Part shown: positions 1,612 to 45,256 of the stretch, piece by piece
Position numbering within the stretch: the first letter of the stretch is position 1
How the letters are laid out: every line of letters begins with the position of its first letter
Source of the DNA: a virus
Reading direction: 5' to 3' (one strand)
Virus record (IMG/VR): IMGVR_UViG_3300045971_001064
Span: 11,256 to 75,255 of that record
Length of the DNA: 64,000 bases
Position numbers and translations under genes: made by a program
The notes under the pieces: model-generated
Told to the model about the DNA's origin: nothing
The model's input: the letters and a program-made list of their open reading frames with translations, nothing else
The model's database searches: none

Positions 1612-4600
1612 GTGAGCAACGGCTACTGGGTGTCCAAATGCGGCCTTCGAGTGCCGAAGGCCGACAACCCGCTGCGCAAGCAGTGGGACGCCGCCTATCT
1701 TGCGCGCGTGTCCGACTACTTCGGCGACAAGGACCGCGACCTCGTCCCCGCCCACATCCCGGTCTCGAAGCTCATCGGCGGCCATGGCGCCAGCGCCGAC
1801 AACAGCCGCGGCCAGTTCTACGTCCGCCTCCTGAAGCTCGGTGAGCGCATCCCGCCCATCGTGGTCTCGGAGATGGGTGACGGCAACTACCACGTCCTCG
1901 ACGGCAACCACCGCGTCGCCGCGGCTCAGGTCTCAGGCACCTCGCACCTGCACGCGCTCGTCATCAAGGACAAGAAGGGCGCCAAGCCGCGCTCGACCTC
2001 GCCCCACGTCTTCACCGGCACCAAGGTCAAGAAGCTGGGCGCGAAGCCGATGAAGAAGAGCGAGGGGGCCGACATCCTCGACCTCTCGAAGCACGAGCGC
2101 GAGGTCCCGCCCGAGTTGCCTCAGCGCATCATCCACGCTCTCTGGGCCATCCGCCAGCCGGGCGTGCTGACCGACGAGCTTCGCCAGCCCCAGTACCGCT
2201 CCAACCCCGACCCGTTCGCTGGGCACTGCTTCGTCGCGACCAACGCGCTCTACCACCTCATCGACGGCCCGAAGACCGGCTGGAGCATGAAGTGCATCCA
2301 CAAGGAGCACATGGAGGGGCTGGCGGACGACTCGCACTGGTTCCTCCAGCACAAGAAGACGGGCCACATCATCGACCCGACCGCGGACCAGTTCGACTCG
2401 GTGCCGCCGTACGAGAAGGCCGTGTCGAAGGGCACCAGCCAGACCGGCGAGGACGTGGGCAAGCCGACTCAGCGCGCCGAGAAGGTCATCAAGCGCGCGA
2501 GGGCTGTGATGGCTGGCGAGCCGCTGACCAAGGGCGAAGAGGAGATGGAGAAGGCCGAGTCGAGCCCCGAGTTCGAGTCGTGGTTCTCGGGCTCGAAGGC
2601 TGTCGACCACGAGGGCAAGCCGCTGAAGTTCTTCCACGGCACCTCGAAGGACAGGGACTTCCACACCTTCAAGACGGGCCAGCGTGGCGCGTGGTTCACT
2701 GACGACCCCGAGGAGGCCAGCCTCTACGCGGACCAGAACGACAGCCGCGGGGCCAAGCTCGACCGCTACACGATGCAGTACAAGGAGCACAACACCGCGG
2801 GCCGCGTCATCCCGGTGCACCTGTCCATCAAGAACCCCTACACGCCGAGCTTCGAGGAGTTCAAGGAGATGAAGCACGCCCAGAACTACGCTTGGGCGCA
2901 GCGGAAGCTCTTCGAGAAGGCGAAGCTGGCAGGGCACGACGGCGCCAACATGGGCGCTGGCATCTGGGTCGCCTTCAACCCGAACCAAATCAAGTCGGTC
3001 TTCAACACCAAGCCGACTCAGCACCTCGCCATCCACAAGGCGGAACTCGCCAAGGCCATCGCCCCCGGCACGCAGACGGGCAGCTTCAACAAGGACGTCG
3101 CGCAGGAGTGGGACTACAGCCACCTGCTGCCCCAGCACGCGCGTGACGAGGGCTACCGCATCCGCCTCATCGCCCACAAGTACAAGGGCGGCGCGGGCAA
3201 CAGCGGCCACGTGCAGGTCCTCGCTCGCCAGACCGTCGACGGCCGCACTCGGCATGTTGGTGCGACGACCGGCCACTTCGACGGCGGGACCGTGCTGGTG
3301 CGTGACGCGCTGGTGGAGGAGAAGGACCGTGGCGCCAGCCGACGCAAGGCCGGGAAGAAGCCGCTCGGCGTGGGCACGGCGCTGTACGAGGCGCTCTACG
3401 CGCACGCTCGTGCTCAGCTTGGCTGCACCGCCGCCGAGGGCGACATCCACTCGACCTCCGCCCACAACGTGCACCGCAAGCTGTCGCGGAAGCACGGGCT
3501 CACCTACGAAGGCAAGCCGAACATCAGGCGCACTGGCGGCCTCGGGTACCGCGACATGGACGAGTGGCGTGAGACTCCTGCCTCCGACCACGACGGCAAG
3601 TACGAGGAGTACGGCTACCGGCTGCCCGACGTCCTTGAGCCGAAGCAGACGAACAGCTTCGCCGAGCACAAGCTCCCCGGCTCGCTGCACGCTGAGGGCT
3701 ACCGGCTCAACATCTCCCACAGCCCCGACACGACCATCGGCACCATCCACCGCCACGGCGAGGTCCTCGGCCACATCGAGTTGACGCCCAAGGGCCACGC
3801 CTTCGAGGAGTGGACGGGCGAGAACAACCGGACCGGGCTCAGCGACGCCGTGCTGTCCGTGCTCCGCGGCCACATGGGAGGCGAGGCCGGGCACGACGAG
3901 TGGAATAACGCCTCCAAGCCCGAGCAGATGATGAAGGCTGAGCAGGTCGACCTCACCGACTTGCTCAAGGCCATCCGCCCCACGAAGCAGGTCAAGTTCG
4001 ACAAGCTGCCCGAGCCTCCCACTGGCAGGCGCCCCGACAGCACCCGCCCGCCTCTGCCCGGCTACAAGGCGCAGCCGTACGGCAGCGATAAGAACAACAC
4101 CTTCGACTACAGCCACCTCCTGCCGAAGGAGTTCCAAGGCAAGTACCGCATCTACGTCCACACCACGGACTACACTGGCGAGAAGGGCCACGAGCGTCAG
4201 TCCACGGTCACAGTTCACCGCGCGCCGCAGCCCGGGCCCACGCCCGTCGACATGGCTGCTCGCGAGCCCATCCTGACCGCCTACGGCAACCACATCAAGG
4301 TGCCGACCAACAACATCCGCACCGAGGGGCTGTACAGGCAGGCCATCCAGCCGCACATCATGCCTCTCACGGACCGTCGCGCTGCGGGCATCACCCCGTA
4401 CGCCATGATGGCCCTGCTGGCTCACGCGCGCAACAACCACGGCATCAAGATGCTCGACATCCCTGAGCACACGCCTGCGGCCTCCAACATGATTCGCCGC
4501 TACTTGGGGCTCATCGGCGCCAAGTACGAGGGGCAGCAGGTCCCGAACCCCCAGCACGGCGATGCCCAGTACGACCCCTTCGTCCGCGACCCCGAGCACA

Positions 4601-7600
4601 TGTTCACGGGCCAGCGGGTCATGCTGAAGGCCGAGGACATCGGACCGGCGGACGGCAGCCACATCACCGCCCCGCACCAGAGCTACGTCCACGGCGCCGC
4701 GGCCAAGCCCTTCGGCACCGAGTACGAGGGCGGCAAGAACGTCTGGGGACGCAACCACCCGGGCAAGAGCAACAAGGGTCGCACGCTGATGGTCCAGTTC
4801 TCCTCCGACCTGCTTCAGGGCGGGCGAAAGAAGGATGAGGCGGACCAGTACTACGACAAGCTCTACTCGAAGCGCGAGGGCTACCACCGGGGACAGGATT
4901 TCTGGGAGGTGCCGCAGTGGCAGGCTCACATGGCGCACTCGATGCCGAACGCCGACCACTACACGGTGCGCGACCCCGAGGAGGCCATCAAGTTCATGGG
5001 CGCGGCGGGCTACGACCACGTGGCCTTCTCCGCTCTCGACGTCAACAAGGACTTCGTCCGTCGCCTCGCTGAGGGCGCTCCTGACCAGCACGTCGTCGTC
5101 GGCGGCTACACGGACATGGCGCACTTCGGGGACCTGAAGAACGTCTCCGTGCACCCGAGCATCAAGAGCTTCGTCGAGTCCGAGGGCCACACCTACCAGC
5201 CCGGCTACGACTACCGGCACTTCACCGGGATGAAGACCATCCCGCGCCTGACCCTGAGCGACGGCTGCCGCCACCAGTGCACCTTCTGCTGCGTGCCCAA
5301 GCAGGTCAACGAGAAGACCCGAGAGGAGATTCTCCAGCAGGCCGACAGCTTCGCCACGCACCTGCCCAGCGACCTCATCTACCTGAACGACAAGACCTTC
5401 GGGCAAGCGAAGAACCACGCGATGCTGCCGGAAATCTACCAGCGCATCAAGGCGAAGAACCCCGGCTTCAAGGGCTTCATCATCCAGACGACCGCGGCGC
5501 AGATGAAGCGCTTCACGCCCGAGTACATGAAGCAGGCGGGCATCAAGCACGTGGAGCTTGGCGTGGAGTCGGTCAACGACCCCATCCTCAAGGCCCACAA
5601 GAAGCCCGCCACCGAGGCCATCATCGAGGACGCCGCCAACAAGGTGCGCGCCGCCGGGGCCAGCCTCATCCCGAACATCATGGTCGGCCTGCCGGGCGAG
5701 GACCGCACCACGTACGCGCGGACGCTGGGCTGGCTCCAGAAGCACCGCGACATCATCAGCCACGTGAACGCCTACAACCTCGCCCTCTACGACGACAGCG
5801 AGCTTGGGAAGAAGCTCCAAGTCATCAACGCGGCCGACCGTGACGAGAACGTGCAGCAGAAGTCGTGGCACACCGACCCGCAGGCGCACGCCGACTTCGC
5901 GAAGGCGCTCTTCGGGTTCGCCAACGGCCAGTTGGACCAGCCCATCGGCCACACGCAGTTGGTGAAGTTCGAGGACCTCGTCCTGCTGGACCTCAAGAAG
6001 AACCAGCCCCTCCCCGGCCACGAGCAGGTCGGCGAGCAGCTTGGGTCGAACCCGGGCGGCGTCTACCAGCACAAGAAGACCGGTAAGCAGTACTACGTGA
6101 AGTTCGCGCCGACCAACGACCACGCGCACAACGAGCACCTCGCCTTCCACCTGTACCAAGCGGCTGGCGTCCCGACCCCGAACGTCTCGCTGGTCGAGCA
6201 CCAGAAGGGCAAGCTCGCCACCACCTCCGAGATGCTCCCGGCCGTGGACCTTGAGACCAACGCGGACTACCACAACGCGGCCCAGCACTTCGGGGCTCAT
6301 GCGTGGCTGGCCAACTGGGACGCGCTCGTCTCGGGCAACACGGTGAACGTCGAAGGCGTGCCCCACACCATCGACGCTGGCGGCGCTCTCCAGTACCGCG
6401 CCATGGGCGGGCCCAAGGGCAACCTCTTCGGCACTCAGGTCGGCGAGTTCAGCACGATGCGCGACCTGAAGATGAACGGCGCCGCTCGCGCCTTCCAGCG
6501 CCTGTCCCCTGACGAGGTCGCTGCCTCGGTCGCTCGTGTCGGCAACGTCTCGGACCAGACCATCGACGAGTTGGTGCGCGCCTATGGCCCCGTCGAGAAG
6601 GAGAAGGCGGAGTGGCTGGCCAGCACCCTGAAGGCCCGCAAGCAGCACCTGCTCGCTCAGGCTCACGCTGAGACCGGCATCAAGCCGCTGGGGAAGGCGG
6701 AGGGCCCGCACCCGTACTTCGCCGCGGCTGACGAGGCTCCGACGAACGAGGGCATCGAGGCGGCTGAGCAGGCCTACCACGGCGGCGTGGCCAACCTCGG
6801 CGACCCGGACGCGGCCCACCACATTCAGGGCATGGGCGGGTACTTCGACTACCGCTCGCACTTGGAGAACGCCGCGCACCAGCACCTCGGTGCCGAGTTC
6901 CCGGTGTGGCGCAACATGTCGGTCGAGCAGTACCGCGGCTGGCGCAACGGTGAGAACGTCGGGCCGGTGAGCGTCACCCTGAACCCCGACGTGGCGCGCA
7001 ACTGGAGCAAGCTCGCAGCGGTCAAGGGCGAGCGCTCGGTGGTGCAGTTGAAGGCTACGCCCGCCTCCATCCTGATGCGCGGCCGTCCCGAGGAGCACGA
7101 GTTGGTCATCGACGGCGACCAAGTCGAGCTTCCCATGGCCAAGGCTCAGGCCTTCATGAAGAGCCCCGCCTTCCGACACATCGCCTCAGGCAAGGTCGTG
7201 GCGACGCCCGTCTTCCACGACACCGCGCACTTGGGTCGCGTGGCGAAGCTGAAGTTCGACAAGGAGAACGACGAGTACCCCGAGGCATACACGCACTGGG
7301 AGGCGGGCTTCCTCGACCACGCTGGCAACTTCTTCAACCGCGAGGACGCGCTCAGGGCCGTCAGCACTTCCAAGACCCCCTCCTCGACCATCAGCGCCGC
7401 GATGCAGGCCGACGGCGGCTTGGAGTCGACGCAGTACGCCGCGGGCCAGAGCAAGGGCATCTTCAAGGCTGAGGTCGACCGCCACGACCCTGTCTCCTGC
7501 GTCGTCATGGTGCAGGACGCGCTGGGCCGCACTCTCTGGGGCAAGCGCAAGGACGGCAAGTACACGATGCCCGCCGGTCACGCCAACCAGAACGAGTTGC

Positions 7601-10462: not shown

Positions 10463-13400
10463 ATGGCCCCTCCCAAGAGCAACGTCAACCCCGCGGGCTC
10501 TGGCCCCTTCTTCCACGCGAAGGGGCACGAGGTGTCGAAGGGCCACAAGCTGGCCAACGGCGGCAACTCGTGGGACTGCCAGTCGTGCGGTCAGGACTAC
10601 GACCCCGACGAAGTGTTCGCCGAGCACGAACTTCCTGAGGACGACGGGCTCGGCGGCGAGACCGTGAAGGTCACCAAGCCCTCGGTCACTCCGTCGCTCT
10701 CACCTATGCAGGCTGCTCAGAAGGTGAGCGCGCTGCTCGATGGCACGCCCGACGTCAAGCCGTCCGGCGTCGTGCAGATGGAGGCGCCTGCTGGCTTGGC
10801 CAACATGGGCGAGCGGCTGGTGGGGCAGAACAAGACGGCGAAGCAGAACCGCCGCTGCTGGCAAGGGCCCGGCAGCGAAGCCCTGCACGCCCAGTTCAAC
10901 CACCGCATCCACACGCCCCTCGCCAACGTCTCGCTGGAGGGTGAGCACTTCGACCACCATCACGGCGCGTGGCTCAAGATTCAGGGCAACTCGCTCTACG
11001 TCGCCAACAAGCTCATCGGCGACTCGCGCGTCAGCCATGACACGCCCCTCAGTCACATCGACCTGTACAGCGCCTACAAGAGCACCCCGCACGCTCCGGC
11101 GTCGACGTTCCTGAAGTACCTCGTGCACCGCATCAACCACGTCGAGGACTACGAGGACCCGACCAAGGGGCACAAGCTCGACGTCGCCTTCAAGGAGTTG
11201 GTCCAGCGCGGCGGCGCGGCCGAGAAGAACGGCCACATCTCCATCCAAGACCTGCACGACTGGACCGACAGGCACGCCACCACCGTGGTGCCGCAGTTGC
11301 TGGCCGAGAAGCAGCGCATGCAGATGGACGTGGCGCGCGGCATCGGGCTCAACGTCCGCAGCATCAACGGCGAGCCCCACGTGGCGCTCACCCGCGGGCT
11401 CAACTCGGACATCATGCAGGACGAGCACTCGCTCTCCTCGCATGCTGACACGGTCGACACCGGCTTCGGCTCCGACATGCACCACTCGTGGGTGCCGCTG
11501 AAGGACCTCTGGTTCCTGTACGACCTCGACCGCACCGCGCGCTCCCACATCCACATGGGGCCCGAGGACGAGGCGCTCATCTCGAACACGGGCCCGCGCT
11601 ACGAGGCCTCGGCGCACGACGTCAAGAAGAACCGCATCAAGCGCTGGCCGAGCCAGCACCCCTACGTCTACGACGACATGTCGGACGAGAGCCTCGCCAA
11701 GCTGCTGAGCGGCGCGTCGTCCAACCCTGACGCCGACAACGAACTGAAGTACGCCATCAAGGACCACAAGAACGCTGGCCCGGCCGTCTGGGCGTTCGAG
11801 CGCAGGCGGTTCGAGGATGCCGGGATGACGCCTGAACTGGGTCGCCCGCCCATCGGCGCCTTCGGCTACAAGTGGTACCCTCGCGAAGAGGTGATGAAGG
11901 CCGCTGCGCTCTCGAAGGTCAGCGTCGACGGCCCCGCGTGGTTCCGCAACCAGAACCTCAACGCACAGGACTTGGAGACGTTGTCGGCGAAGCTCTTCGA
12001 CGGCGAGCCGAAGAAGAACAGCTACTCGGGCCTCGTCGATGAGGGGGCTCAGCAACTGCTCACGCACCCCGCGATGAACTCGCACGTGCTGGAGCGCATC
12101 TGGAGGGCGCAGCACGGCTCGCCGTGGGCTCCGACGCTGCTGGAGTCGCCTCTGGCCACCCACCAGATGCGCGAGGACGCCATCGAGCAGGCGAAGTTCA
12201 TGTCGGGAGCCGGGCTCCTCGCGCCCCTGAAGCTCATGCGGGCAGTGACGAGCAACCCTCACCACACCGAAGAGCAGGCGCAGAAGGTCTTCGACTGGGC
12301 CGTGCAGAACGGGATGTTCAGGGACAACGAGGACCTGCACAACGCCATCGCTCGCGCGAAGCTCCCGGCCGAGACGGTGCTGAAGCTGTACGACCGCCGC
12401 GACGAGTTGGGTGAAGAGCAGGCCGTCAGGAACTCCTCCCGCGGCTTCGAGCCCGGCGGGCACCTCACGCCGGATGAGCGGCGAGAGTACAATACGCTCG
12501 GGGCCATCAAGAACGACTTCATGCAGGTGCACCCCGACGCCAACGTCGTTGCCCGGGTCGCGGCGTCCAAGCCCGGCCGAGTCTCGCCGCTCACGCTCCT
12601 CCAGCGCCTGAGTTGCAACGGCGGGACCTTGGAGCCCGTGTTGCAGGCTGCCCTCATCACCGAGTGCGAGCACCTCTACGGCCACGGCACCCCTCACCTC
12701 GGCTCGACTCGCCAGCCGGTGGTGGAGTTCTTGGAGAAGCTGGCCGGGGCGAAGGGGCTCTCGCAGGAGAGCATCAACTACCTCGCGCACTACAAGGACA
12801 ACTTGGTGCGTGAGGTCCTCGGCCTCAACAAGAGCATCGCGCCCGAGCAGCTTCGCGCCGCCTTCCCCAAGGGCGTCCAGTTCCCCGAGCGCTCGAACAT
12901 CCACTACGAGACCGGCACCCACACCGGCACCATCGCCGAGGAGCTTGGGCAGGCCTACTGGCGCCGCAAGCAGTACGCTGAGAAGAAGGCCAAGCTCCAC
13001 TTCATCAAGCCCCTGCCCGCGGACCTCGCCAAGTCGAGCGAGGAGGACCTGTGGCGCGCGGCTGCACGGCACTGGCTGGCCGACCAGACGACCAAGGGGT
13101 TCTACGCCGTCATCCACAAGGACGTCGCCGAGGGCGCTCTCCGGGACAAGGCCATCGAGCCCCAGTTCACGGACGAGTTGCTGGACGGCGAGGCCGTGTT
13201 CGGTCGCCCTGCCACGCCCGAGAACCTCATCAAGCTCCAGAAGCTGGCTGGCCCGGACGAGGTGGTGGCCTACTTCGAGACACCTGTCGCTCCTCGTGAG
13301 CACACCGACGGCAGCCTGTACTGGACCGAGCGCGTGCCCTGCGAGACCATCCAGTTGGCGGACGTGGGCGACGAGCCGCTCGCCAAGATGCACACGCCCC

Positions 13401-17257: not shown

Positions 17258-17740
17258 ATGACCCTCACGTGCCCAAGGTGCAAGGCTGCTAAGCCGTCCG
17301 ACCAGTTCAATCGCGACGTGAGTCGCCCAAGCGGAAGGCAGGTGTCCTGCCGAGCGTGTGAGAAGGTCTACCGCGACACGATGATGGACAGGACCAAGAG
17401 GTCGGCCGACAACAAGGCTTGGCGCTTGGCCAATCGCGAGTACGTTCGTGCCGAGAACCGCGCGTGGCACTACCGCGCCAACTACGGCATGACCATCGCC
17501 GACTACGACGCGCTGTTGCTGAAGCAGGGCGGTGGATGTGCGGTCTGCAAGACTAAGAAGACCGGCACGCGCAACCACTTCTTCTGCGTCGACCACCGCC
17601 ACGTCGATGGCTACGACGCGCTGGTGGCCGAGGAGAAGCGGCGTCACGTCCGCGGCCTGCTCTGTGTGACCTGCAACTTGGTAGCCGGGAAGCTGGAGGA
17701 GTTCCCCGGCGCCTTCGAGGCCTACGTGGCGGGGCTCTAG
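17258..17740 (+). CDS. Endonuclease VII-family HNH homing endonuclease
   Basis: YGMTIADYDALL.KQGGGCAVC...VDH.H...VRGLLC..CN, plus an N-terminal CxxC/CxxC. Confidence 0.85.
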   Translation: MTLTCPRCKAAKPSDQFNRDVSRPSGRQVSCRACEKVYRDTMMDRTKRSADNKAWRLANREYVRAENRAWHYRANYGMTIADYDALLLKQGGGCAVCKTKKTGTRNHFFCVDHRHVDGYDALVAEEKRRHVRGLLCVTCNLVAGKLEEFPGAFEAYVAGL

Positions 17741-24859: not shown

Positions 24860-25105
24860 CTAGTACCTCACCGTGCAGCCCTTGAAGACGAGGCCGCAGC
24901 AGACGGTGCCCTTGGCGCGCACGCCGAGCGCGTTGATGGCGCTGAAGCCGGTGGCCGAGAAGTCGCTCTCCGCGCAGGCGAAGGGCTCGTAGCCGGTGAT
25001 GCGGATGTCCCTGAAGCCCGCCGACTCCAGAGTCCGCCGGGCGTCGTCCTCGTTGGTGCAGGCGACGAGGGAGATGAGCAGCAGCGCGGCGAGGATGCTC
25101 TTCAT
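24860..25105 (-). CDS. Phage lipoprotein
   Basis: Lipobox LVAC; pattern ARR.LE..GF.DI.ITGY..F.C...D...TGF.A...G.VC.G..KG.T.R of a recurrent phage family. Confidence 0.7.
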   Translation of the reverse strand: MKSILAALLLISLVACTNEDDARRTLESAGFRDIRITGYEPFACAESDFSATGFSAINALGVRAKGTVCCGLVFKGCTVRY

Positions 25106-25734
25106 GACGCCTTCTTTCTGAGGTTGGAGGCGGCCTCCTTGGCAGCCTTGATGCGGTTCTGGCGGTCCTGCTCCAGCGCCTTCTCGTAGGCGTCGATGGC
25201 CTTCGCGGGGATGCGCTGGACGCCCTTGGGGACGCGCTGGACCTTCGGCTGGGGCTTGGCCGCCCGAGCGGGCTTCGAGGCCTTGGCGGCCTTGCGGAGG
25301 GCCTCCTTGCACATCTCCAGCCCCTCGACCACGACGAGCCGGTCGAGCACCTTGTAGCCCTCGGTCTTCATGTACTCGGCAGCCTTCTTCGGGTCGCGAG
25401 ACAGCAGCACCTTGAAGACGAGGACGGCCTCCTGCACCGCTCCGCGCTTGGCAGCGGCCTCCTCGTGCCGCCGCTTGTCGGCCAGCGCCGAGATGGGGAG
25501 CTTGGTCACGAACTCGTAGCGCCGCTCCTCGGGCTTGGCCGCGTCGGCCAGCACGCGCACGCGCTGGACGTTGTCCTCACCGCCGTACGGCTCGAAGTCG
25601 CGGCCGGTGACGGTCTTGCTGAAGGCGTCCATGGCCTGCTCGCGCTTGTTGAGGCTGCTGGCCTCCGGGGCACGGTCGTTCTTGAGGAACTCGTGCAACT
25701 CCGCCATCGAGAACTGCGTCTGCTCGGTCACCAT
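25102..25734 (-). CDS. Hypothetical basic helical protein
   Basis: SD AGGAG; CGTGC-TATCAT promoter upstream. Confidence 0.6.
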   Translation of the reverse strand: MVTEQTQFSMAELHEFLKNDRAPEASSLNKREQAMDAFSKTVTGRDFEPYGGEDNVQRVRVLADAAKPEERRYEFVTKLPISALADKRRHEEAAAKRGAVQEAVLVFKVLLSRDPKKAAEYMKTEGYKVLDRLVVVEGLEMCKEALRKAAKASKPARAAKPQPKVQRVPKGVQRIPAKAIDAYEKALEQDRQNRIKAAKEAASNLRKKAS

Positions 25735-30135: not shown

Positions 30136-30711
30136 ATGAGCGCGAAGACCCATAGCGGCTCGCCGTGTAAGGTGTGCGAGATGACCGAGAGGTATGTCTC
30201 GTATCCTCACAACTGCGTCGCTTGCGCCCGTCGTCGGGCGAAGCTGCGTCTGGTAGAGCGTCGCGAACAGGTGAAGGCGACCGCTGACCGGTGGAGACTC
30301 GCTCACGTGGTGCAGATGAGGGCTTATCGCACCAAGTGGCGCCGGGCTCACCCAGCAAAGGCCCGGCAGTGCGCAGCGGCGTATCTGGAGAGCGGGCCCG
30401 AGGCGCGACTTCGGACACGCCTCCGGAAGAGGCTCTACCATGCGCTGGTGGACGGTTCCAAGGTTGGCTCCGCAGTCCGCGACCTCGGCTGCACCATCCC
30501 AGAACTTCGTCTTCATCTAGAGAAGCTCTTCCAGTCCGGCATGACATGGGAGAACTGGTCTCCGACTGGCTGGCACATCGACCACATCAAGCCGCTGGCC
30601 AACTTCGACCTGACTGACCGGCCGCAGTTCCTGAAGGCCTGCCACTACACCAACCTCCAGCCGCTATGGGCCAGCGACAATCTAGCCAAGGGCGCCAGAG
30701 AGGCAGCCTAA
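30136..30711 (+). CDS. HNH homing endonuclease
   Basis: LGCTI.EL..HLE..F..GM.WEN....WHIDHIKPL..FDL.......HY.NLQPLW..DN..KG. Confidence 0.88.
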   Translation: MSAKTHSGSPCKVCEMTERYVSYPHNCVACARRRAKLRLVERREQVKATADRWRLAHVVQMRAYRTKWRRAHPAKARQCAAAYLESGPEARLRTRLRKRLYHALVDGSKVGSAVRDLGCTIPELRLHLEKLFQSGMTWENWSPTGWHIDHIKPLANFDLTDRPQFLKACHYTNLQPLWASDNLAKGAREAA

Positions 30712-30713
30712 CT

Positions 30714-31505
30714 ATGAGCCACCTCAACTCGTTCCTCAAGGCCGTGCTCGGCGACGACGCGGCTGGTGCTCTGAAGAAGGCCGCTGACCGCTCCGACTCG
30801 CTCGCCACCGTACTCGGCGCGCGCACTGTCGTGGGCTGGGTGGGTCTTGCTTCGCGCTGGGGCTACGAGGGCGAGGTGCCCGGCCTGCCCGGCTCCTACC
30901 TGCGCTTCGCCAAGGCCGAGGGCGGGTTCGAGGGCCAGATTCGCCTCGGGAAGAACGACTACAGCTTCAAGGGCGTTGACCTGCCGCACGTTGCGGCCGG
31001 GCTGTCGGTGGCGCTGGGCGCCGACCAGACTCCGGATGTGGACCTCCGGGACGCCGAACTTGCCGCGCTCGGGCAGAACATCGACCTGCTGCTCAAGACG
31101 CAGGTCATCAAGAGCGAGGAGTCATCCTCCAGCGGGTCAGGGTCGGAGGAGTCGAGCGAGGAGCTTGAGAAGTTCGATGCTCCCGGCGCCGCGGCCACGC
31201 AGAAGGCTCCAGCCGGTCCGGTCGATGGCGGCTTCACGGCTCCCTTGGCCAAGCAGCCCGGCCGAGCCAAGAAGAAGAAGTTCGGCGCCAAGCTGACCAT
31301 GTCGCAGGCGTCCTCGAAGTGCTCGGTCTGCGATGCGCCCCAGTTCGCGGGAGACATCTTCGTTGGCTGCCACTGCCTCAAGGACCTCGCCAAGAACGCC
31401 TCGGCTACCGCTGTCGACGGCGGCTACTTCATCGAGTTCGACCCAGCCTTCTGGTCGCGCGAGGACGCCACTCTGCTGCTGGACATCGTCGGGGAGGGCG
31501 CCTAG
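30714..31505 (+). CDS. Putative head protein with K[S/A]E-type motifs
   Basis: FAKAE, VIKSEE, LEKFD, LAKQ, LAKN; CxxC..CxC near the C-terminus. Confidence 0.6.
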   Translation: MSHLNSFLKAVLGDDAAGALKKAADRSDSLATVLGARTVVGWVGLASRWGYEGEVPGLPGSYLRFAKAEGGFEGQIRLGKNDYSFKGVDLPHVAAGLSVALGADQTPDVDLRDAELAALGQNIDLLLKTQVIKSEESSSSGSGSEESSEELEKFDAPGAAATQKAPAGPVDGGFTAPLAKQPGRAKKKKFGAKLTMSQASSKCSVCDAPQFAGDIFVGCHCLKDLAKNASATAVDGGYFIEFDPAFWSREDATLLLDIVGEGA

Positions 31506-33008
31506 ATGGCTGACAAGAAGGCGACTCTGCACTGGTACGGCCACCCGGTCAAGGACGAGGCGCACGCCACGAACCTCGACCTGAAGGCCGCGACCTACCA
31601 GTTCCACCACGGCATGGACCGGCACGAGGCCGAGAACAAGGCCAAGCACGAGGACCGCGTCGAGCGGCACCAGAAGGCTGCCGCACACCACCTCGACGGC
31701 ATGAAGGCCGCGCACGCCGTGGGCAACCACGAGGACGCGCAGCAGCACCACATGATGTACACCCTGCACGCCAAGGCGCTCGGCTTCGAGACCAACGGCG
31801 CCGTGCCGCCCGAGGTGGCGAAGTGGCAGGGCTCCAAGGCAGAGAAGCACGCCTACACCTTCAAGGGCCACGGGGACGACCAGTTCCTCACCGAGCCCGT
31901 GACCATGTCGCCCGCTCCGCTCGGCAAGTCCGAGGAGAGCACGCTCGACGCGACCTGCGAGAACTGCGGCAACCAGCGCTCGCCCATCGAGGTCAAGAAC
32001 GACTACTGCTCCGGCTGCGCCAAGGAGATTGACGACGCGGCTCAGCAGGGGCAAGCCAACATGCACTGGCAGGAGAAGCCCAGCTTCGGCGGCTACGGCC
32101 ACGAGGCGAAGAGCAAGCTGGAGGGCTACCTCCGAGGCCTCGGCATCGAGGGCGCGCAGGTCGAGGACATCGAGCCCGAGACCGTCGTGCACCGCTCTCC
32201 TGAGATGCAGGACGCTGCCCAGAAGCGGGCCCACGCCAAGATGCGGGAGTTCATCGGCGGCGGCAAGTGGTGGCCGAAGCCCGAGCCCACGTCGCCCGTG
32301 GCTGCCGTCCCGTCGGCTGGCGCCCCGACTCTCTCGGCTCCCAAGTACGGCCACCTGCGCATCGTGAAGGCTGAGGCGTGGCCTCACATCCTCGCCTCGT
32401 GGCGCAACCTCGCCAAGGCCGACCCGGAGCAGGCGCAGGGCCGCGTGAAGCAGTTCGACGCGCGCCGCACGTGGCTGCGTCACCGCCACCTCCCCGAGGA
32501 GAAGGCCTTCGACTACTCGTCGTGGCTGACCCCGGGCCAGCACCAGAACGGCTACCGGATGTTCGTGCTCAGCCACGGCAACGGCAACCCGGTCCGCGTC
32601 CACATCACGCACAACAACCAGAAGGCGGCGACCGCCAGCGGGAACGTGGACCAAGGTGACTTGGAGGTCGAGAACTACTCGCTCTCGCACCCCTCCCATC
32701 ACGACCGCGGTCTGGAGGCTTCGGCCCTCAACGCGATGTTCGGACACGCGAAAAGCCATCTCGGAGCCAACTACTTGAGCCACGGTTTTTTCACCCCCGA
32801 GGCCTCTGGCTTCATCGAGGCCATGGCCAAGCCGCATGGACTGGAGTTGGGGGATGCGGAGGACATCGACGAAGGAGAGACTCCTGTCGACCAGAAGCCA
32901 GCCACTCTTGTGTCGGGTGGGGTGAAGATGTACAGTAAGGTGCGGGGGCGCCACCCTCGCTCAATGCCGCCACGTTGGTGGGCTACGGACAAGGAACTCG
33001 ACGACTAA
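31506..33008 (+). CDS. Putative head cargo protein: His-rich N-domain, zinc ribbon, GNAT-like C-domain
   Basis: LGKSEE, IVKAE and LAKAD linkers; FDYSSWL..GYRMFV module shared with the 2671-aa protein. Confidence 0.6.
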   Translation: MADKKATLHWYGHPVKDEAHATNLDLKAATYQFHHGMDRHEAENKAKHEDRVERHQKAAAHHLDGMKAAHAVGNHEDAQQHHMMYTLHAKALGFETNGAVPPEVAKWQGSKAEKHAYTFKGHGDDQFLTEPVTMSPAPLGKSEESTLDATCENCGNQRSPIEVKNDYCSGCAKEIDDAAQQGQANMHWQEKPSFGGYGHEAKSKLEGYLRGLGIEGAQVEDIEPETVVHRSPEMQDAAQKRAHAKMREFIGGGKWWPKPEPTSPVAAVPSAGAPTLSAPKYGHLRIVKAEAWPHILASWRNLAKADPEQAQGRVKQFDARRTWLRHRHLPEEKAFDYSSWLTPGQHQNGYRMFVLSHGNGNPVRVHITHNNQKAATASGNVDQGDLEVENYSLSHPSHHDRGLEASALNAMFGHAKSHLGANYLSHGFFTPEASGFIEAMAKPHGLELGDAEDIDEGETPVDQKPATLVSGGVKMYSKVRGRHPRSMPPRWWATDKELDD

Positions 33009-33031: not shown

Positions 33032-33646
33032 ATGACCCCTCGCTTCCTTATCTATGGACTCATCGACCCGCGCTCGGGAGAGTTGCGGTACGTGGGGAAG
33101 AGTGTGACTGGGTTGGCGAGACCAAGACAGCACGTCCAGCCGGTTTTCTTGAAGCGTGAGGGCTCGACCCACAAGGCAAACTGGCTCCGTCAGCTTCTGG
33201 CTGCTGGGCTGAAGCCCGAGGTCGAGGTGTTGGAGACCCATTTCATCGCCTACTTCCGCAGCATCGGCTGTCGGCTGACGAATCTAACGGATGGCGGCGA
33301 CGGGCTGTTGGGGCGAAAGGTGTCTGCTGAGACGCGCAGACGCATCTCACTTTCCAACACCGGAAAGAAGCGTTCTGACTTGTCGCGGCAGATGATGTCA
33401 CAGAAGCGTCTCGGAGCAGCGCCCTACAACAAGGGATGCGTTATGTCGCCTGAGCAGAGAGCCAAGCTGTCGGCGACTCAAGGTGGTCGGCCGTTTGTGG
33501 ACCAGAATGGGGTGGTCTATCAGACGCAAGGCGAAGCTGTCCGCAAGCTGGGGCTGTGTCAAGGCAACGTCAGTCGAGTGCTGAACGGCAGCTACAGCGC
33601 AACCGGCGGCTTCACTTTCAAGTACGCGGAGGCCGTGTGCAGCTAA
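33032..33646 (+). CDS. GIY-YIG homing endonuclease (NUMOD3/HTH tail), probably inactivated by an in-frame deletion
   Basis: LIYGLIDPRSGELRYVGKS; lacks 12 aa that are present in the paralog at 45257. Confidence 0.85.
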   Translation: MTPRFLIYGLIDPRSGELRYVGKSVTGLARPRQHVQPVFLKREGSTHKANWLRQLLAAGLKPEVEVLETHFIAYFRSIGCRLTNLTDGGDGLLGRKVSAETRRRISLSNTGKKRSDLSRQMMSQKRLGAAPYNKGCVMSPEQRAKLSATQGGRPFVDQNGVVYQTQGEAVRKLGLCQGNVSRVLNGSYSATGGFTFKYAEAVCS

Positions 33647-35067
33647 ACTTTTCGTGGCACTTCGATGCGGACGCCGACATCGAACGCGCCTTGCTCTACG
33701 ACAAAGTGGAGGAAGCGGGCCGCATCGGCCAGAGCGTCGAGGCCGCGAACCGCGTGCTGGAGTCGTGGGTCCTGCGCTCGCACGGCCGCATCGTCTCGGA
33801 CGAGGGCACCTCGGGCGCCGCGCAGTTGGCTGCCGAGTACCTCGAAGAGCTTCCAGACATCGTGAGGCAGGTCGAGGAGGTCACCAGCGCCCGGATGTTC
33901 GTGGGCGTCGGCTCCGAGCCCAGCGAGGCTGCCATCGCTCGCAAGGTGGCCGAGAAGCGTGGCGGCTCGCCTGCCATCGTGCTCTACACCCCTGACCTGT
34001 CCTCCGAGGCCCGTGAGGACGACGAGTTCTCCGACGACGACGCTGACACGCTGGAGGTCGGCGACGGCGGCGGTGGTGGGGACGACGACACCGGTCTGGC
34101 CAAGGCCGAGGACAACCAGCAGGAGGGCGGGGAGGCCACTCAGGTCGCTCAGGGGAAGCTCTCGCCCGGTGCGGCGGCTCCGAGCCCACCCCCGAGCCCC
34201 GGCATCAGCGCAGGCTCTCCCAGCGCTCCACAGGGGCAGCCGCAGCAGGGTGGCCAGCCTCCGGGCGGCGGCCAGCCCTCCGAAGAGGACGTCATGGGCG
34301 CCGTCGGGCAGGCCTTGGAGCAGTTCAAGGCTCAGGTGCCCTTCTTCGAGCAGCAGGTGAAGCAGGCCAACCCGCAGGCCTACGCCGCGGTCATGGGGAT
34401 GGTACAGGGTCTCATCGCCCTCGCTCAGACTCTGGCTGGTGGCGATGCCGAGGGCACACCGCCTGAGGGCGCCGCTCAGGGTGGCGGGCAGCCGGTAGCC
34501 AAGTCCGAGACCAGCAAGGTCGAGGTCGACCCGCGCCGCCCGGCCTACGCGCCCGAGTTCCTCCGCAAGCTGTACGACGGGGCCGACGTGGTGAAGGGTG
34601 AGGCGTCGCCGACTGGCGCGCACTACAAGGAGTTCGTGGCTGGGTTCGAGCACGAGGCCATGGAGCACCCGCACCTGAACGCCGAGCAGGCCGCGCTCAC
34701 CGCCAAGCAGCATCTGGCCGAGGACCCCCAGTACTACTCGAAGCTCGGGTTGCTGGAGGAGTCAGGCGTCATCGGCGAGGGCTCGGAGCCGCTGGACAAG
34801 AACCTCAACCTGCCAGTCGGCTCGCGCGGTGTTGGACAGCACGCTCGCAGCATCGCGGTCGAGGAGCCCGTCACCGGCAAGAAGACGTGGCACCAGATGG
34901 CTTCAGGCCGCAAGCTGTCGGGCGATGGCCACGCCCTCTCAACGCTGGTGGGCGAGTGTCCGTCCGCTGACACACCAGAGTCCCGCGCGTCGAAGGCAGG
35001 CCTCGTGGGCACCCCAACTACCGCGCAAGAGAAGCCCCCTCAAACTGCACAACTCCCCGGGAAGTAG
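33637..35067 (+). CDS. Putative head protein with a degenerate mCpol/GGDEF-like N-domain and low-complexity linkers
   Basis: GTG start with GGAGG SD; MFVGVG.EPSEA.IA.KVAEKRGG; LAKAE, VAKSE, VVKGE, LDKN; GFEHEAMEHPH....A..HLAEDPQYYSKL. Confidence 0.65.
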   Translation: MQLNFSWHFDADADIERALLYDKVEEAGRIGQSVEAANRVLESWVLRSHGRIVSDEGTSGAAQLAAEYLEELPDIVRQVEEVTSARMFVGVGSEPSEAAIARKVAEKRGGSPAIVLYTPDLSSEAREDDEFSDDDADTLEVGDGGGGGDDDTGLAKAEDNQQEGGEATQVAQGKLSPGAAAPSPPPSPGISAGSPSAPQGQPQQGGQPPGGGQPSEEDVMGAVGQALEQFKAQVPFFEQQVKQANPQAYAAVMGMVQGLIALAQTLAGGDAEGTPPEGAAQGGGQPVAKSETSKVEVDPRRPAYAPEFLRKLYDGADVVKGEASPTGAHYKEFVAGFEHEAMEHPHLNAEQAALTAKQHLAEDPQYYSKLGLLEESGVIGEGSEPLDKNLNLPVGSRGVGQHARSIAVEEPVTGKKTWHQMASGRKLSGDGHALSTLVGECPSADTPESRASKAGLVGTPTTAQEKPPQTAQLPGK

Positions 35068-40230: not shown

Positions 40231-40270
40231 GTGACGCTCCTTGGGGGAAAGAGATACCGTAGCACGGCGG

Positions 40271-41129: not shown

Positions 41130-41130
41130 G

Positions 41131-41379: not shown

Positions 41380-41414
41380 GGAAGGAGTGTACCTGAAGTC
41401 GAGGTGGGTGTCAA
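41377..41414 (-). promoter_or_regulatory. Sigma70-type leaderless promoter P7
   Basis: TTGACA-N17-TACACT-N6-ATG. Confidence 0.85.
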
Positions 41415-41417
41415 GGC

Positions 41418-41774
41418 CTACAGGGTCACGGCCCACGCGAGGCCCAGCATCGTCAGCCCGGCGGCGTGGTGGCTGGTCTTCCGCACGAGCCCCATGGCCA
41501 CCAGCGACCGGCAGGTGCGGTGCCACGCCGAGGAGGCGATGCGGCCGTCCGGGGCCAGCGAGTAGCCGTGGCGGGTGAAGCTGCGGAGGAAGTCCTTCTG
41601 TGAATCCGAGAGCTTGACCTTGGGGAAGGTGTCGTCGCCCACCAAGTGCATGGTCATCGGGGCGCCGATGCGGGCAGCGGCCTTCTCTGCGGTCTCGCGG
41701 TCGTGGAAGGTGGCGAGGTCGGGCTGGCCGTCGGCGGCGATGAACTTGACCACGTAGAGGAGGGAGCGAGCCAT
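41418..41774 (-). CDS. Hypothetical early protein with a C-terminal winged helix (leaderless)
   Basis: KLSDSQKDFL...TC.SLV.MGLV; start set by P8. Confidence 0.6.
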   Translation of the reverse strand: MARSLLYVVKFIAADGQPDLATFHDRETAEKAAARIGAPMTMHLVGDDTFPKVKLSDSQKDFLRSFTRHGYSLAPDGRIASSAWHRTCRSLVAMGLVRKTSHHAAGLTMLGLAWAVTL

Positions 41775-41809
41775 GGATGCAGTGTACGCCATCTTGACGC
41801 CCGTGTCAA
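41772..41809 (-). promoter_or_regulatory. Sigma70-type leaderless promoter P8
   Basis: TTGACA-N17-TACACT-N6-ATG. Confidence 0.85.
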
Positions 41810-42147
41810 GTCGGCGTGTTCTCATCCTTTGGGGTGGAAGGCTGGAGGCTGGCCTCGACCATGTTCGCCGCGCCGCGGCAGATGTCGGCGAGGTCGAGCG
41901 CCGAGGCCATGTCGTCGGGGTGCCTCTTGTCGAAGTCGCGGCACATCAGCTTGGCGACGTTGACCATCTCCTCGATGCAGGCCGACATCCACTTCAGGCG
42001 GTAGTGCGGGAAGGGCTCGTTCTTGGAGAGCGCCTCGTACATGGCGGCTCGCAGCTTGAGCCCGTGCTGGAGGCGGACCGAGGTGCGCGATGACTCGACG
42101 GCGTCACCCAGCACGGTCGCGATGAGGTCGAGGTCCTGACGAGGCAT
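41806..42147 (-). CDS. Hypothetical protein (leaderless)
   Basis: CGTGC-TACAGT-N6-ATG; its TGA lies in the P8 -35. Confidence 0.6.
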   Translation of the reverse strand: MPRQDLDLIATVLGDAVESSRTSVRLQHGLKLRAAMYEALSKNEPFPHYRLKWMSACIEEMVNVAKLMCRDFDKRHPDDMASALDLADICRGAANMVEASLQPSTPKDENTPT

Positions 42148-42188
42148 GCGAGTACTGTAGCACGGCCGCACGCAATCTTCCACTCAGA

Positions 42189-42998
42189 ATGGCCACCACC
42201 GAAGTCACTGGCATCTTCCAGACGCCCATCATCGTCAGGAGCGCCATCATCAAGTCCTTGCAGGAACTTCGGGAGGACCCGACTCTCATCGAGGACGCCC
42301 TCGCCTGCCTCGTGCAGGACGACCTGACCGCGGCGCGCTACGGCGAGAAGACCGTGGCCCAGTGCGTGGAGTGGTTCACGAAGACCAACATCCCGGTCAA
42401 GCTCGGCCTCAGCCTGACGCAGTTGACCTCGCCGTGCATCTCGGTGGAGTTGAGCGGCGGCGACGAGACCGAAGCCACACTCGGCGACGTCAACTACACG
42501 CCCAGCGAAGAGGACCCGCGTCGCCCCGGGCACTACCGCCAACTCGCCTCGGTGCACTCGCGCGAGAGCGTGAACGTCATCGTCATGGTGCAGGGCGAGG
42601 TCGAGTACCTGCTCTTCCTGTCCTCGCTGCTGCGCTTCGCCGTCCTTCGCCACAAGGAGGACCTCTTCGACGACCGCGGCTTCGCTCGGATGACGTGGGG
42701 CGCTGGCGTGTTCGGCTCGATGCCCGAGGCTCCGGGACGCGAGAACTTCTTCGCCAACACCGTCCGCGTGACCGGCTACGTGCGCCACGTCTGGCCCGTC
42801 CCGCTCGCGAAGGACCAGCCCGACACCGCCATCAGCAGCGTGCCGTTCGGGCCGCGCGTCGCTCCTGTAGCGCAGAACACCGAGGGCACCGCGACAAGCG
42901 TTCCGGCGACGCCCTCCGAGCCCGGGCCCGCTGGAGCCAATCCCTTCGACCCGGCGAACTGGCTGGACAGGGACATCATCTCGGGGAAGAAGACCTAA
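42189..42998 (+). CDS. Putative tail terminator / sheath stabiliser
   Basis: P.I.V.L....E....LG..., position upstream of the sheath; CAATCT at 42173. Confidence 0.55.
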   Translation: MATTEVTGIFQTPIIVRSAIIKSLQELREDPTLIEDALACLVQDDLTAARYGEKTVAQCVEWFTKTNIPVKLGLSLTQLTSPCISVELSGGDETEATLGDVNYTPSEEDPRRPGHYRQLASVHSRESVNVIVMVQGEVEYLLFLSSLLRFAVLRHKEDLFDDRGFARMTWGAGVFGSMPEAPGRENFFANTVRVTGYVRHVWPVPLAKDQPDTAISSVPFGPRVAPVAQNTEGTATSVPATPSEPGPAGANPFDPANWLDRDIISGKKT

Positions 42999-43015
42999 CC
43001 CCGTGAGCCCGCACC

Positions 43016-43023
43016 TAATCTAG
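43016..43023 (+). promoter_or_regulatory. Putative late promoter TAATCTAG
   Basis: 8 nt before ATG 43031. Confidence 0.6.
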
Positions 43024-43030
43024 GGTCAAG

Positions 43031-45256
43031 ATGCCTCGACGCGCACCGCTTCCCCCGGGGACTGACCCACGTGAGCATCCTGCCCTCAAGGGCGGGCATG
43101 TGGTCATCCTTGGCGGCGAGAAGCCGCTCTTCACGGCGAGTGGTCCCGTCGGCCACGCCGCGCTCGGCCAGATGCTTGAGCAGAAGGGCTTCGACTATGA
43201 GCCCTGCCACGGCAAGTACCAAGGCGACAAGCAGCCCTCGTACATCGTCCACGTGCGCAACGACGGCGAGGACGAGACACTCAAGGGCATCGCCCGCAGG
43301 ATGGGGCAGGAGTCGGTTGTCCACTCCGAGGGCGGCAAGCACCAGCTTGTCTACCTGAACGGCGACAACGCGGGCAAGGCGACCGCCCCGGCTGGTGGGC
43401 TGGAGTGGTACGGCGACAACGAGCCCGACGACAACTACACCACGCTGTACGGCGCGAGCGGTGAGCCGCTCGGCCACTTCAAGTACAACATGGACTTCGA
43501 CAACCCGATGGTGCCCGATGGTCCGGGCCCGATGGTCGATGTTCCTGAGGCAGCGAAGCAGGTCCTGAAGTCGGCGGTTGAGTCCTACCGCGGCATCCTG
43601 CTCGACCTCCGCAAGCGCGAGACCGACAAGCTGTCCAAGAAGCTGAACCCGGGCATGGGCGCTGACCGTGACCAGCACACCGGCTCGCACCCCGACGGCT
43701 CAAGCCTCTCGCTCAACCGCCCGAGCCATCCCTTCAGCGAGCCCGCCCGAGCCACGAGCGGCGGCGCCATCGACGGTCGCATCGCCAAGTACATGACCGA
43801 GGGTGGACGCAAGGGCAAGGTCCGTGGCAACAAGCCCTCAAGCGACATCTCGACTCAGGGCCCACACGGCCGCTCATCTCCCCACTCAGGCAACATCGTC
43901 AGCAAGACGGAGAACCCGATGAAGCTCCATGACCTCATGAAGTCGCAGGCTCAGGCCGTCAAGAAGTTCGGGGAGGAGGGCTTCCAGCCCACCAACAAGT
44001 TCTCGAACAAGCTCGCCGCTGGCCGCGAGAAGTCGCCCGAGGGTTCTCCCGCCGCTGCTGGGGCGAAGGACACCTTCACGCAGCGCGCGACCACGCCGTC
44101 GAGCCCGGGCGCCTTCAAGGCCGAGGAGAGCATGGGCAAGGCCCAGTGCCAGTGCGGCAAGGGCGAGTGCAAGTGGTGCGGCAAGGCTCCTCCGAAGCCG
44201 CGCCCCGGCAACGAGCAGGGTGAGCATGGCGGCAGCCCGAAGAAGCCCGCCTACCAGCCCGGCGACGAGGTCAAGAAGAGCATCTGGAAGAAGATGCCTG
44301 AGATGACCAAGGCTCAGACCAACGCGCACGCCTCGGCGAAGCGCAACGGTGGGACCATCAAGCTCGGCAAGCAGGAGTTCTACCTCGACCACCAGAACCC
44401 CACCGTTCCGAAGGAGGACGATGCGTCCATCCCCGGCGGCAAGGAGACCGGCTGGCGCACGGGTGGGCAGAAGCCGAAGAGCGTCGAGCGCAGCGGCTCA
44501 GGCGGCGGCATCTCCGGCAACAAGCCCAAGGCGGGCCCTGACCAGAAGAACACCTCGGAGAACAGCGTGACCGAGGGCACCGTGCCGAAGTCGAGCGGCA
44601 AGAACGACCTCATCGAGAAGGCTGCTGCCGACTTCCATAAGCGGACCGGCAACAAGTTCAAGAAGTACGAGTACGACAACGGCAAGTGCAAGGAGTGTGG
44701 CGCCGGTCTCGACGACTCGGGCTACTGCTCCCGCACCAACCACGACGACGAGGATGAGAGGCCGTCCCCTGAGCAGTCCGCTCTGGACGAGGGCCGCCAC
44801 AACCCGCAGGACTTCGAGAAGGCCGCGCCGAGCATGGGCGCTCCGAAGGCCCCGTCTGCTGGTGGCGCTGGCTCGCCGACCTTGAGCGGCGGCGCCTCCA
44901 AGAAGCCGCCCACCACCCACGCGACCGCGAACGCTGTGGGCTTCGGCAAGGCGCTGATGCCGTTCTCGGCCCAGCAGCACGGCGCGCAGGCTGCGCACGG
45001 CGCCGCTGGTGGTGGCGCTGCTCCGACTGCCGCTCCTGCGGTCACTCCCAAGGCGCCCAGCCAGTTCGACCCGTCCCTCTACGCTCCGCCCGCGGGTGGC
45101 GTGAAGTCGGGTCTGCTCACCGACAAGGACTTCGCCAACGCCAAGGGTCCGATGTCCGGCGTTGGGGTCACTCCTCGTCCTGCTGCACCTGCCGGTCTGC
45201 GCTCGCCCGCCCAGCACAAGGGCATCACCGGCTTCCTCAACGGGAAGGGCGGGTAG
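43031..45256 (+). CDS. Putative head cargo protein: N-terminal SAM-lyase-like domain plus a long disordered region with K[S/A]x motifs
   Basis: GHAAL..ML...G....GKY.G.KQPSY.V....IARRMGQESVV..LVY..G..PDDNYT; LMKSQ, FKAEE, MGKAQ, VKKSI, MTKAQ, IEKAA, FEKAA, FGKAL. Confidence 0.65.
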   Translation: MPRRAPLPPGTDPREHPALKGGHVVILGGEKPLFTASGPVGHAALGQMLEQKGFDYEPCHGKYQGDKQPSYIVHVRNDGEDETLKGIARRMGQESVVHSEGGKHQLVYLNGDNAGKATAPAGGLEWYGDNEPDDNYTTLYGASGEPLGHFKYNMDFDNPMVPDGPGPMVDVPEAAKQVLKSAVESYRGILLDLRKRETDKLSKKLNPGMGADRDQHTGSHPDGSSLSLNRPSHPFSEPARATSGGAIDGRIAKYMTEGGRKGKVRGNKPSSDISTQGPHGRSSPHSGNIVSKTENPMKLHDLMKSQAQAVKKFGEEGFQPTNKFSNKLAAGREKSPEGSPAAAGAKDTFTQRATTPSSPGAFKAEESMGKAQCQCGKGECKWCGKAPPKPRPGNEQGEHGGSPKKPAYQPGDEVKKSIWKKMPEMTKAQTNAHASAKRNGGTIKLGKQEFYLDHQNPTVPKEDDASIPGGKETGWRTGGQKPKSVERSGSGGGISGNKPKAGPDQKNTSENSVTEGTVPKSSGKNDLIEKAAADFHKRTGNKFKKYEYDNGKCKECGAGLDDSGYCSRTNHDDEDERPSPEQSALDEGRHNPQDFEKAAPSMGAPKAPSAGGAGSPTLSGGASKKPPTTHATANAVGFGKALMPFSAQQHGAQAAHGAAGGGAAPTAAPAVTPKAPSQFDPSLYAPPAGGVKSGLLTDKDFANAKGPMSGVGVTPRPAAPAGLRSPAQHKGITGFLNGKGG

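Follow-up and report, generated by a model that had tools for sequence, protein, structure and literature searches.

The DNA analysed here (the window) is a 64,000-nucleotide stretch of IMG/VR virus record IMGVR_UViG_3300045971_001064, corresponding to bases 11256-75255 of one 98,738-base virus contig (L001, 66% GC). It codes for two giant multi-domain proteins and a set of smaller head-region proteins that share a short peptide motif, defined as [LIVMF]-x-K-[SAGN]-E in its strict form and as Phi-x-K-[SAG], with Phi a hydrophobic residue, in its core or relaxed form. Genes were called by codon statistics and the motif was counted in every protein against shuffles of the same protein, which supply the expected counts given below. 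An earlier reading of this DNA from its letters alone (the sequence-only reading) had reported the motif in six genes, and all 20 motif coordinates that it listed translate exactly as written. Five of the six genes carry strict sites, whereas the sixth, at 43031-45256, holds the relaxed form only.

The first giant protein (P0001; 1612-9627, + strand; 2671 amino acids, aa) has 9 strict sites against 0.65 expected. By the window coordinate of the first codon, its sites are MKKSE (2050), LTKGE (2524), MEKAE (2545), IHKAE then LAKAI (3031), MMKAE (3928), LLKAI (3961), MLKAE (4621), LKKNQ (5992), LGKAE (6688), MAKAQ (7135), IFKAE (7459), LAKGA (7870) and MAKSE (8365). The order of its domains is ParB_N-like, YunG-like, ART-PolyVal, GNAT, unknown and radical SAM, followed by a HipA-like kinase, two unknown domains, NUDIX, a DRAT-like ADP-ribosyltransferase (ART) and a C-terminal HExxH domain. 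Pfam matches comprise PF18760 ART-PolyVal at residues 332-469 (E value 2.8e-16, 61 bits against a cut-off of 31.2), Radical_SAM at 1215-1374 and NUDIX at 1961-2057. When the protein is split at its motif sites, Pfam also matches the ParB_N-like, GNAT, HipA-like kinase and DRAT-like ART domains, and each piece contains at most one recognisable domain. Foldseek of a four-domain model against Swiss-Prot was convincing for YunG (TM 0.70 by hit) and GNAT alone, and lent no support to the 'papain-like' character that the sequence-only reading had given residues 150-307. For the C-terminal HExxH domain, an ESM Atlas look-up gave unnamed clusters only. The ART-PolyVal match, together with the many unrelated enzyme domains, identifies P0001 as a polyvalent protein, a class described by Iyer, Burroughs, Anand, de Souza and Aravind in 2017 (PMC5512222, of which part of the text was available). 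The proposal that the locus represents a new system is therefore withdrawn.

The second polyvalent protein (P0002; 10457-17242, + strand; 2261 aa, with a likely ATG start at 10463) has 4 strict sites against 0.59 expected, namely IKKAE (14885), VKKSE (15338), MQKSE (16028) and LSKNE (16331), and relaxed sites at 13025, 13379 and 14297. It contains an HExxH motif, a tandem repeat domain and a weakly matched C-terminal HipA/PI3K-like kinase; apart from this kinase-like C-terminus, it gave no significant Pfam match. The motif opens each of its two tandem repeat units (33% identity, E value 3e-17).

Three smaller head-island proteins, all on the + strand, also carry strict sites. The 279-aa protein (30666-31505; start placed at 30714 by the sequence-only reading) has two against 0.07 expected, FAKAE (30906) and VIKSE (31104), and the 500-aa protein (31506-33008) has two against 0.12, LGKSE (31920) and IVKAE (32361). 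In the 503-aa protein (33556-35067; start previously placed at 33637), whose N-terminus weakly matches an mCpol/GGDEF-like cyclase domain, there are three against 0.13, LAKAE (34096), VAKSE (34495) and VVKGE (34588), all in Gly/Asp/Gln-rich linkers. The sixth gene (43031-45256, + strand) lies just upstream of the sheath gene and encodes a 741-aa protein with no strict site; it holds 9 matches to Phi-x-K-[SAG] against 3.2 expected (0/400 shuffles), including LMKSQ, MGKAQ and MTKAQ. The four smaller proteins and P0002 were almost without matches in PHROG and Pfam. A further motif-rich protein, scaffold-like, is encoded just upstream of the major capsid gene and outside the window (L001:2823-3869), with 4 strict sites against 0.12 expected.

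By protein kinship and gene order, the window belongs to an Mx1-like myxophage. The major capsid gene just upstream of the window (L001:3901-5337) encodes a product 54.6% identical to the major capsid protein of Myxococcus phage Mx1 (reference genome OR576727, 169.6 kb), with a distant kinship to SPO1-type capsid proteins. The gene order from scaffold to tail sheath matches that of Mx1, and the P0001 gene, between the capsid and sheath genes, is syntenic with it. A megablast of the window against GenBank phages returned no match, so that the kinship with Mx1 is visible at the protein level only.

Pooled over the head-island proteins, 24 strict sites were found against 2.0 +/- 1.4 expected, a count that none of 200 shuffles reached (0/200). 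In the 18 tail, sheath and baseplate proteins there were none against 0.74 expected, and the tail sheath itself (45898-48330, + strand; phrog_279 tail sheath match), which served as negative control, has no strict site. The remaining 65 proteins have 4 against 2.6, close to chance. Two points were thus borne out: the occurrence of the motif is not random and is limited to head-region proteins, and, as had been judged by eye, sheath and tube are not enriched in it. An unbiased genome-wide scan singled out as outliers the scaffold-like protein and the genes already named by the sequence-only reading.

The signal is specific to the arrangement of residues. Decoy motifs with R for K, in reverse order, with a non-hydrophobic first position or with a non-small residue after K were all at expectation. 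A decoy with D for E was weakly raised (4 against 1.66 here and 17 against 8.3 in homologues), and one with K shifted by one residue gave 6 against 2.2, reached by 3/200 shuffles. Among aligned sites the Lys and the small residue are constant, and the position of Glu may hold E, D, Q, I or G. The sequence-only reading had invoked cleavage after Glu as in T4 and phiKZ, which does not fit the data, as the invariant core is Phi-x-K-small and neither the T4-like [LI]-x-E (47 against 49.6 expected) nor the phiKZ-like [SAG]-x-E (124 against 128.5) is enriched in head proteins. The DNA pattern of the motif falls in coding phase 0 on 39 occasions and in the other phases on 1 and 0, and its codons vary: Ser is encoded from both of its codon families, and Ala and Glu are each encoded by several codons. 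Selection therefore acts on the peptide, and a signal at the DNA level was rejected on the same grounds.

As the sequence-only reading had proposed, the sites stand at domain boundaries, and this is seen in four tests: Pfam envelopes, about 400 homology-block ends, cassette swaps between relatives and an AlphaFold model, the last in agreement for the most part. In P0001, the Pfam envelopes of ART, NUDIX and radical SAM each have sites on both sides. A HMMER search with residues 1-1100 gave 4487 matches, and 144 of the listed best ones were re-aligned to the query; among these, 211 of 304 domain starts fall within -3 to +12 of a site, compared with 35 for random site placement. The starts cluster at 310-320 (after K307 and K314), 480-485 (after K481) and 1006-1014 (after K1006), and the ends at 295-305 and 460-470. 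Matches to residues 1690-2300 likewise start and end at K1695, K1844, K1952, K2089 and K2254. Among 33 polyvalent proteins, 185 of 505 BLAST high-scoring segment pairs start next to a site (52 +/- 10 expected). The AlphaFold model of residues 140-800 (58-row alignment, registration checked) has a mean predicted local distance difference test score (pLDDT) of 80, and each of four segments in it with pLDDT <50, 140-163, 470-481, 757-781 and 787-800, has a site, at 147-151, 474-482, 773-777 and 784-788. The flanks of the sites stood out only modestly on a disorder-propensity index (p about 0.0015).

Comparison with relatives shows both that the sites are conserved and that domains are exchanged at them. 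Although the scaffold and three smaller proteins are only about 30% identical to their Mx1 counterparts, they have sites in the same alignment columns as these; for example, four core sites of the 279-aa protein align column for column with the Mx1 homologue, and LGKSE of the 500-aa protein is aligned to MNKSE of its counterpart. In two close relatives of P0001 (P0031, 2629 aa; P0032, 1833 aa), blocks of 59-92% identity alternate with inserted or replaced cassettes whose break points are motif sites, and P0032 has a cassette of about 115 aa between the two sites that adjoin in P0001 as IHKAE-LAKAI. The order of domains also differs from phage to phage: the ParB-like domain, N-terminal in P0001, is found at the C-terminus in Mx1 and in G001, a relative of 62% GC. 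Across 27 homologous metagenomic polyvalent proteins there are 74 strict sites against 9.5 expected, and where context was checked these proteins lie in Mx1-like gene orders. By contrast, in polyvalent proteins of 2000-5600 aa that share the ART domain only, the number of sites is mostly 0-2 and at most 4, where about 1 is expected. As these giant proteins of other elements lack enrichment, the motif is not a general property of polyvalent linkers, and that candidate was rejected. Among the proteins compared, the motif tracks one phage lineage, as protease specificity would.

Two further features of the polyvalent genes were observed. The DRAT-like ART, present once in P0001 (2090-2254), is repeated in tandem three or four times in some relatives (metagenomic homologues P0011, P0012 and P0014), and a motif-type boundary opens each of these copies. 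Endonuclease VII / HNH-type homing endonuclease genes directly adjoin the polyprotein genes in the window (17258-17740 and 45257-45889) and do so likewise in a close relative (L023:9556-10008 and 24873-25280); such neighbours could promote cassette exchange at motif sites.

The motif is also present in the usual substrates of head maturation. Seven metagenomic relatives were found via the capsid protein, on five distinct contigs (36-62% GC), in addition to another relative of 68% GC. The Mx1 scaffold has 3 strict sites against 0.15 expected; the scaffolds of four of the five contigs have 4-5 against 0.1-0.5 and that of the fifth 3 against 0.19, and the 68%-GC relative contributes a scaffold fragment with several sites. 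The sequence-only reading had suggested looking for the motif at capsid and portal, and it was found in both. The Mx1 portal has 2 strict sites against 0.2 expected, one near each end, and among the relatives' portals two have 3 against 0.25 and a third 1 against 0.28. All nine major capsid proteins of the lineage, including that of the contig, carry the core form as Phi-x-K-A-[L/M]-E-A-G at residues about 10-16. This site aligns with L-N-K-A-L-E of SPO1 and with V-V-K24-S25 of PDB 5lii (phi812-type, 463 aa), so that L-A-K13/A14 of our capsid protein corresponds to K24/S25 of the phi812-type protein. In Mx1 the capsid site reads L-R-K before Ala, and the 1479-aa NUDIX protein (WNM70333) and the 619-aa kinase (WNM70334) of that phage have the sites M-K-K-A-E, L-K-K-S-E, L-E-K-S-E and V-M-K-S-E. 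In PDB 9row (439 aa), which is the same protein as 5lii, the chain begins at S25, and HK97 gp5 has the comparable F-N-K103-S104, its mature chain in PDB 1ohg starting at residue 104. Phi-x-K-S occurs 11 times in the 244 aa of the SPO1 scaffold, and the SPO1 protease matches Pfam Peptidase_S78. A prohead protease gene is present in Mx1 and four relatives, and the N-terminal domain of the putative Mx1 enzyme (WNM70322, about residues 1-200) shares 27% identity with the SPO1 S78 protease (E value 4e-12) over an alignment that covers the N-F-D-H and F-S-V-E-G stretches of the latter.

Every lineage prohead protease has, after its S78 domain, a copy of the capsid N-arm (K-A-x-x-A-G ... A-P-S-x-L ... 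G-S-A-L-Q). It is found in Mx1 (L004:13002-16721, residues ~240-270) and in the relatives at L009:7611-8570, L010:7620-8561, L012:7462-8406 and L007:2669-7588, and plausibly docks the protease inside the procapsid. The Mx1 (1239 aa) and L007 (1639 aa) proteases are fused to a long polyvalent-like extension, which in L007 ends in a GGDEF-like region. A small open reading frame about 3.2 kb upstream of the window (L001:8041-8328) also copies the capsid N-arm in its first ~32 residues, including an L-I-K-A-L-E site (hidden Markov model score 26, E value 1.6e-9), and may be a capsid-interior decoy, a targeting module or the remnant of a capsid gene duplication. In G001, the portal (L021:6467-9814; 1115 aa, compared with 686 in Mx1) and the large terminase (L021:10820-14092; 1090 aa, compared with 667) each consist of two Mx1-matching blocks around a large insert, and the protease (L007:2669-7588) has a LAGLIDADG-like stretch; these are probably inteins.

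From the enrichment, specificity, placement, conservation and lineage restriction of the motif, and from its match to the shortened starts of capsid chains in the PDB, we consider it likely that Phi-x-K-[S/A/G](-E) is the cut site of the lineage's HK97/SPO1-type (MEROPS S78) prohead serine protease, punctuating packaged polyvalent and head proteins. The sites, placed between the domains of the two polyvalent proteins and in the linkers of the four smaller head-region proteins, would be read alongside the customary substrates, i.e. the scaffold, the capsid N-arm and the portal ends. The polyvalent and small head-region proteins would be built into the procapsid, where the protease would cut their joints between Lys and the small residue. 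P0001 alone is predicted to yield about 12 pieces, and the products would be single-domain enzymes of roughly 100-460 aa (ADP-ribosyltransferases, GNAT, NUDIX, kinases, radical SAM, ParB-like). Residing inside the head, these freed enzymes would then leave with the DNA at infection. The constancy of Lys and the small residue, with Glu varying, suggests that the bond between these two is the one cut, and the alignment of the capsid site with the phi812-type K/S, together with its resemblance to K103/S104 of HK97, makes a scissile bond after Lys more likely. The tryptic or semi-tryptic digests proposed in the sequence-only reading cannot reveal a cut after Lys. As to its proposal of a cleavage and/or capsid-targeting code, the first part is best taken as a prohead-protease code releasing enzyme domains, whereas for the second no shared targeting sequence emerged.

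Between related phages, cassettes of domains are also inserted, replaced and reordered at this site, which thereby serves as a neutral joint. Taken further, the capsid-protease site might be a universal joint, such that domains flanked by it are spliced in, freed in the capsid and delivered as >20 separate effectors, a radical SAM enzyme among them. This would amount to an RNA-virus-like polyprotein strategy in a double-stranded DNA phage, with the joints as points of exchange between phages. We put forward this extension tentatively, as possible rather than probable.

Several observations weigh against protease cleavage at the sites. Protease, portal and terminase genes were not found on the 98.7-kb contig when searched with their Mx1 counterparts, including the prohead protease that the sequence-only reading expected elsewhere in the genome. 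In Mx1, these genes sit upstream of the scaffold gene, near where our contig begins, which indicates that the record is a fragment; the protease of this phage is accordingly postulated from its relatives. All-against-all BLAST of 12 head-region proteins detected no common capsid-targeting peptide at E <0.05, although short or structural signals could escape such a search. Strict sites are lacking throughout the first 1470 residues of P0002, and some core matches fall inside folds (e.g. ILKAH in the radical SAM domain). The proposed location in disordered linkers holds for the four low-pLDDT segments of P0001 but not throughout, as the site cluster at 305-316 is predicted to lie in an inter-domain helix (pLDDT 74-83) with no disordered loop, and the linker 673-685 (window ~3628-3666), between GNAT and a small beta-rich domain, is predicted to be disordered and has no site. 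Hence some joints are without a predicted cut, and the piece 482-775 would keep two domains. Taking 9row as a mature chain relies on its deposited length and register, and a literature search retrieved neither a usable published S78 cleavage consensus for SPO1, T5 or phi812 nor proteomic or N-terminal data for any Mx1-like phage.

The foremost alternative is that the motif is an uncleaved linker or junction signature (a structural cap, a packaging contact with scaffold or capsid, or a sequence borne by cassettes) and that the proteins stay intact, in the manner of P1 DarB or N4 vRNAP. Cassette swaps at the sites and the helical prediction at 305-316 would suit such a signature, as would the precedent of DarB, a 251 kDa protein packaged via an N-terminal signal and with no processing described in the available text of the source (PMC9024508). 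It would leave unaccounted for the agreement of the motif with the protease-family pattern, K before S or A with a hydrophobic residue two positions before K, its position in the capsid N-arm at the aligned start of a shortened chain in a relative's solved structure, its density in scaffolds, which such proteases degrade, and its occurrence in unrelated proteins that share no flanks. We therefore regard this alternative as unlikely. A different agent of cleavage would be the metallopeptidase domains that may be embedded in the polyvalent proteins themselves, with the prohead protease uninvolved. HExxH can be read in both giant proteins (HEMMH in the last domain of P0001, HEDLH in P0002) and could belong to processing metallopeptidases, a further point against the prohead protease, and the available text of PMC5512222 predicts autoprocessing of polyvalent proteins by metallopeptidases (MPTase). 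However, neither region has a Pfam MPTase or peptidase match, even at E 0.5, and the motif is also enriched in scaffold, portal and small head proteins devoid of an HExxH domain, marks the capsid N-arm where the shortened phi812-type chain starts, and is retained by relatives' polyvalent proteins with other domain sets, which together render self-processing improbable. Least probable, to the point that we give it hardly any weight, is that the sites are former gene starts or internal translation starts, the polyproteins being recent fusions or giving nested products. Although 8 of the 24 strict sites begin with Met (ATG), M-K-K-S-E resembles an N-terminus and genes often start with Lys-rich second and third codons, the other 16 begin with Leu, Ile, Val or Phe (CTG, CTC, TTG, ATC, GTC, GTA, GTG, TTC), mostly non-start codons, and sites also occur at the C-terminal ends of scaffold and portal and 10-14 residues inside the capsid protein. 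Cleavage by the S78 prohead protease is thus the explanation that we favour.

Elsewhere on the contig, its first gene (L001:314-1861) encodes a secreted-looking protein of 515 aa with two Ig-like repeats and an Ala/Thr/Val-rich C-terminal region. No tblastn match to this region was obtained with the Mx1 proteins from the first 39 kb of that genome.

Should the sites indeed be cut, the sequence by itself would tell which proteins are head cargo and where each mature enzyme starts and ends, and two unreadable genes of 2000+ aa would resolve into some 20 defined candidates for anti-defence or host-takeover enzymes. The evolution of polyvalent proteins would then be explained by the exchange of cassettes at neutral joints, and the sites would suggest how foreign proteins could be designed for loading into HK97/SPO1-type capsids. 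Cutting would also directly test the 2017 prediction of polyvalent processing, for which no experimental test was found in the literature. Testing is practicable, since Mx1 propagates on Myxococcus xanthus.

The polyvalent protein class, the S78 protease family and the multi-site trimming of ejected head proteins in T4, phiKZ and SPN3US are already known. We found no description in the literature of an S78-type site that stands systematically at the joints of giant multi-enzyme proteins, is restricted to one lineage and serves as cassette boundary. Like the polyvalent proteins of Iyer et al., as far as the available text of PMC5512222 describes them, those of the window are giant multi-effector strings (ART-PolyVal, NUDIX, GNAT, ParB, kinase, radical SAM) encoded beside virion genes. 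The same text predicts that polyvalent proteins travel with DNA and are processed by embedded or assemblin-like peptidases; it describes no cleavage motif, whereas here a defined short site lies at the domain joints. The window's lineage further differs from polyvalent proteins of other elements (2000-5600 aa) in that motif enrichment is confined to it.

S78 prohead proteases are known to act on the scaffold or delta domain, on the capsid protein and the portal, and on themselves. As in substrates of the HK97 gp4 / SPO1 gp3.2-type (Peptidase_S78) enzymes, the pattern here is hydrophobic-x-Lys followed by Ser or Ala, and the capsid N-arm aligns; unlike in those substrates, the sites punctuate enzymes of up to 2671 aa, with Glu preferred two positions after Lys. 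A packaged and processed ADP-ribosyltransferase is known in T4 Alt. The prohead proteases T4 gp21, phiKZ gp175 and SPN3US gp245 trim many internal, ejected head proteins at a short motif, sometimes at multiple sites, and they cut after Glu (L/I-x-E; A/S/G-x-E), mostly removing N-terminal propeptides (PMC10052503). In contrast, Glu motifs are not enriched here, and the predicted cuts would separate whole enzyme domains. P1 DarB is likewise a very large multi-domain anti-defence protein that is packaged into the head and is believed to be delivered to the cell, with a signal of 30 N-terminal residues in the available account (PMC9024508); the proteins of the window differ from it in sharing no such signal and in their multiple predicted internal cuts.

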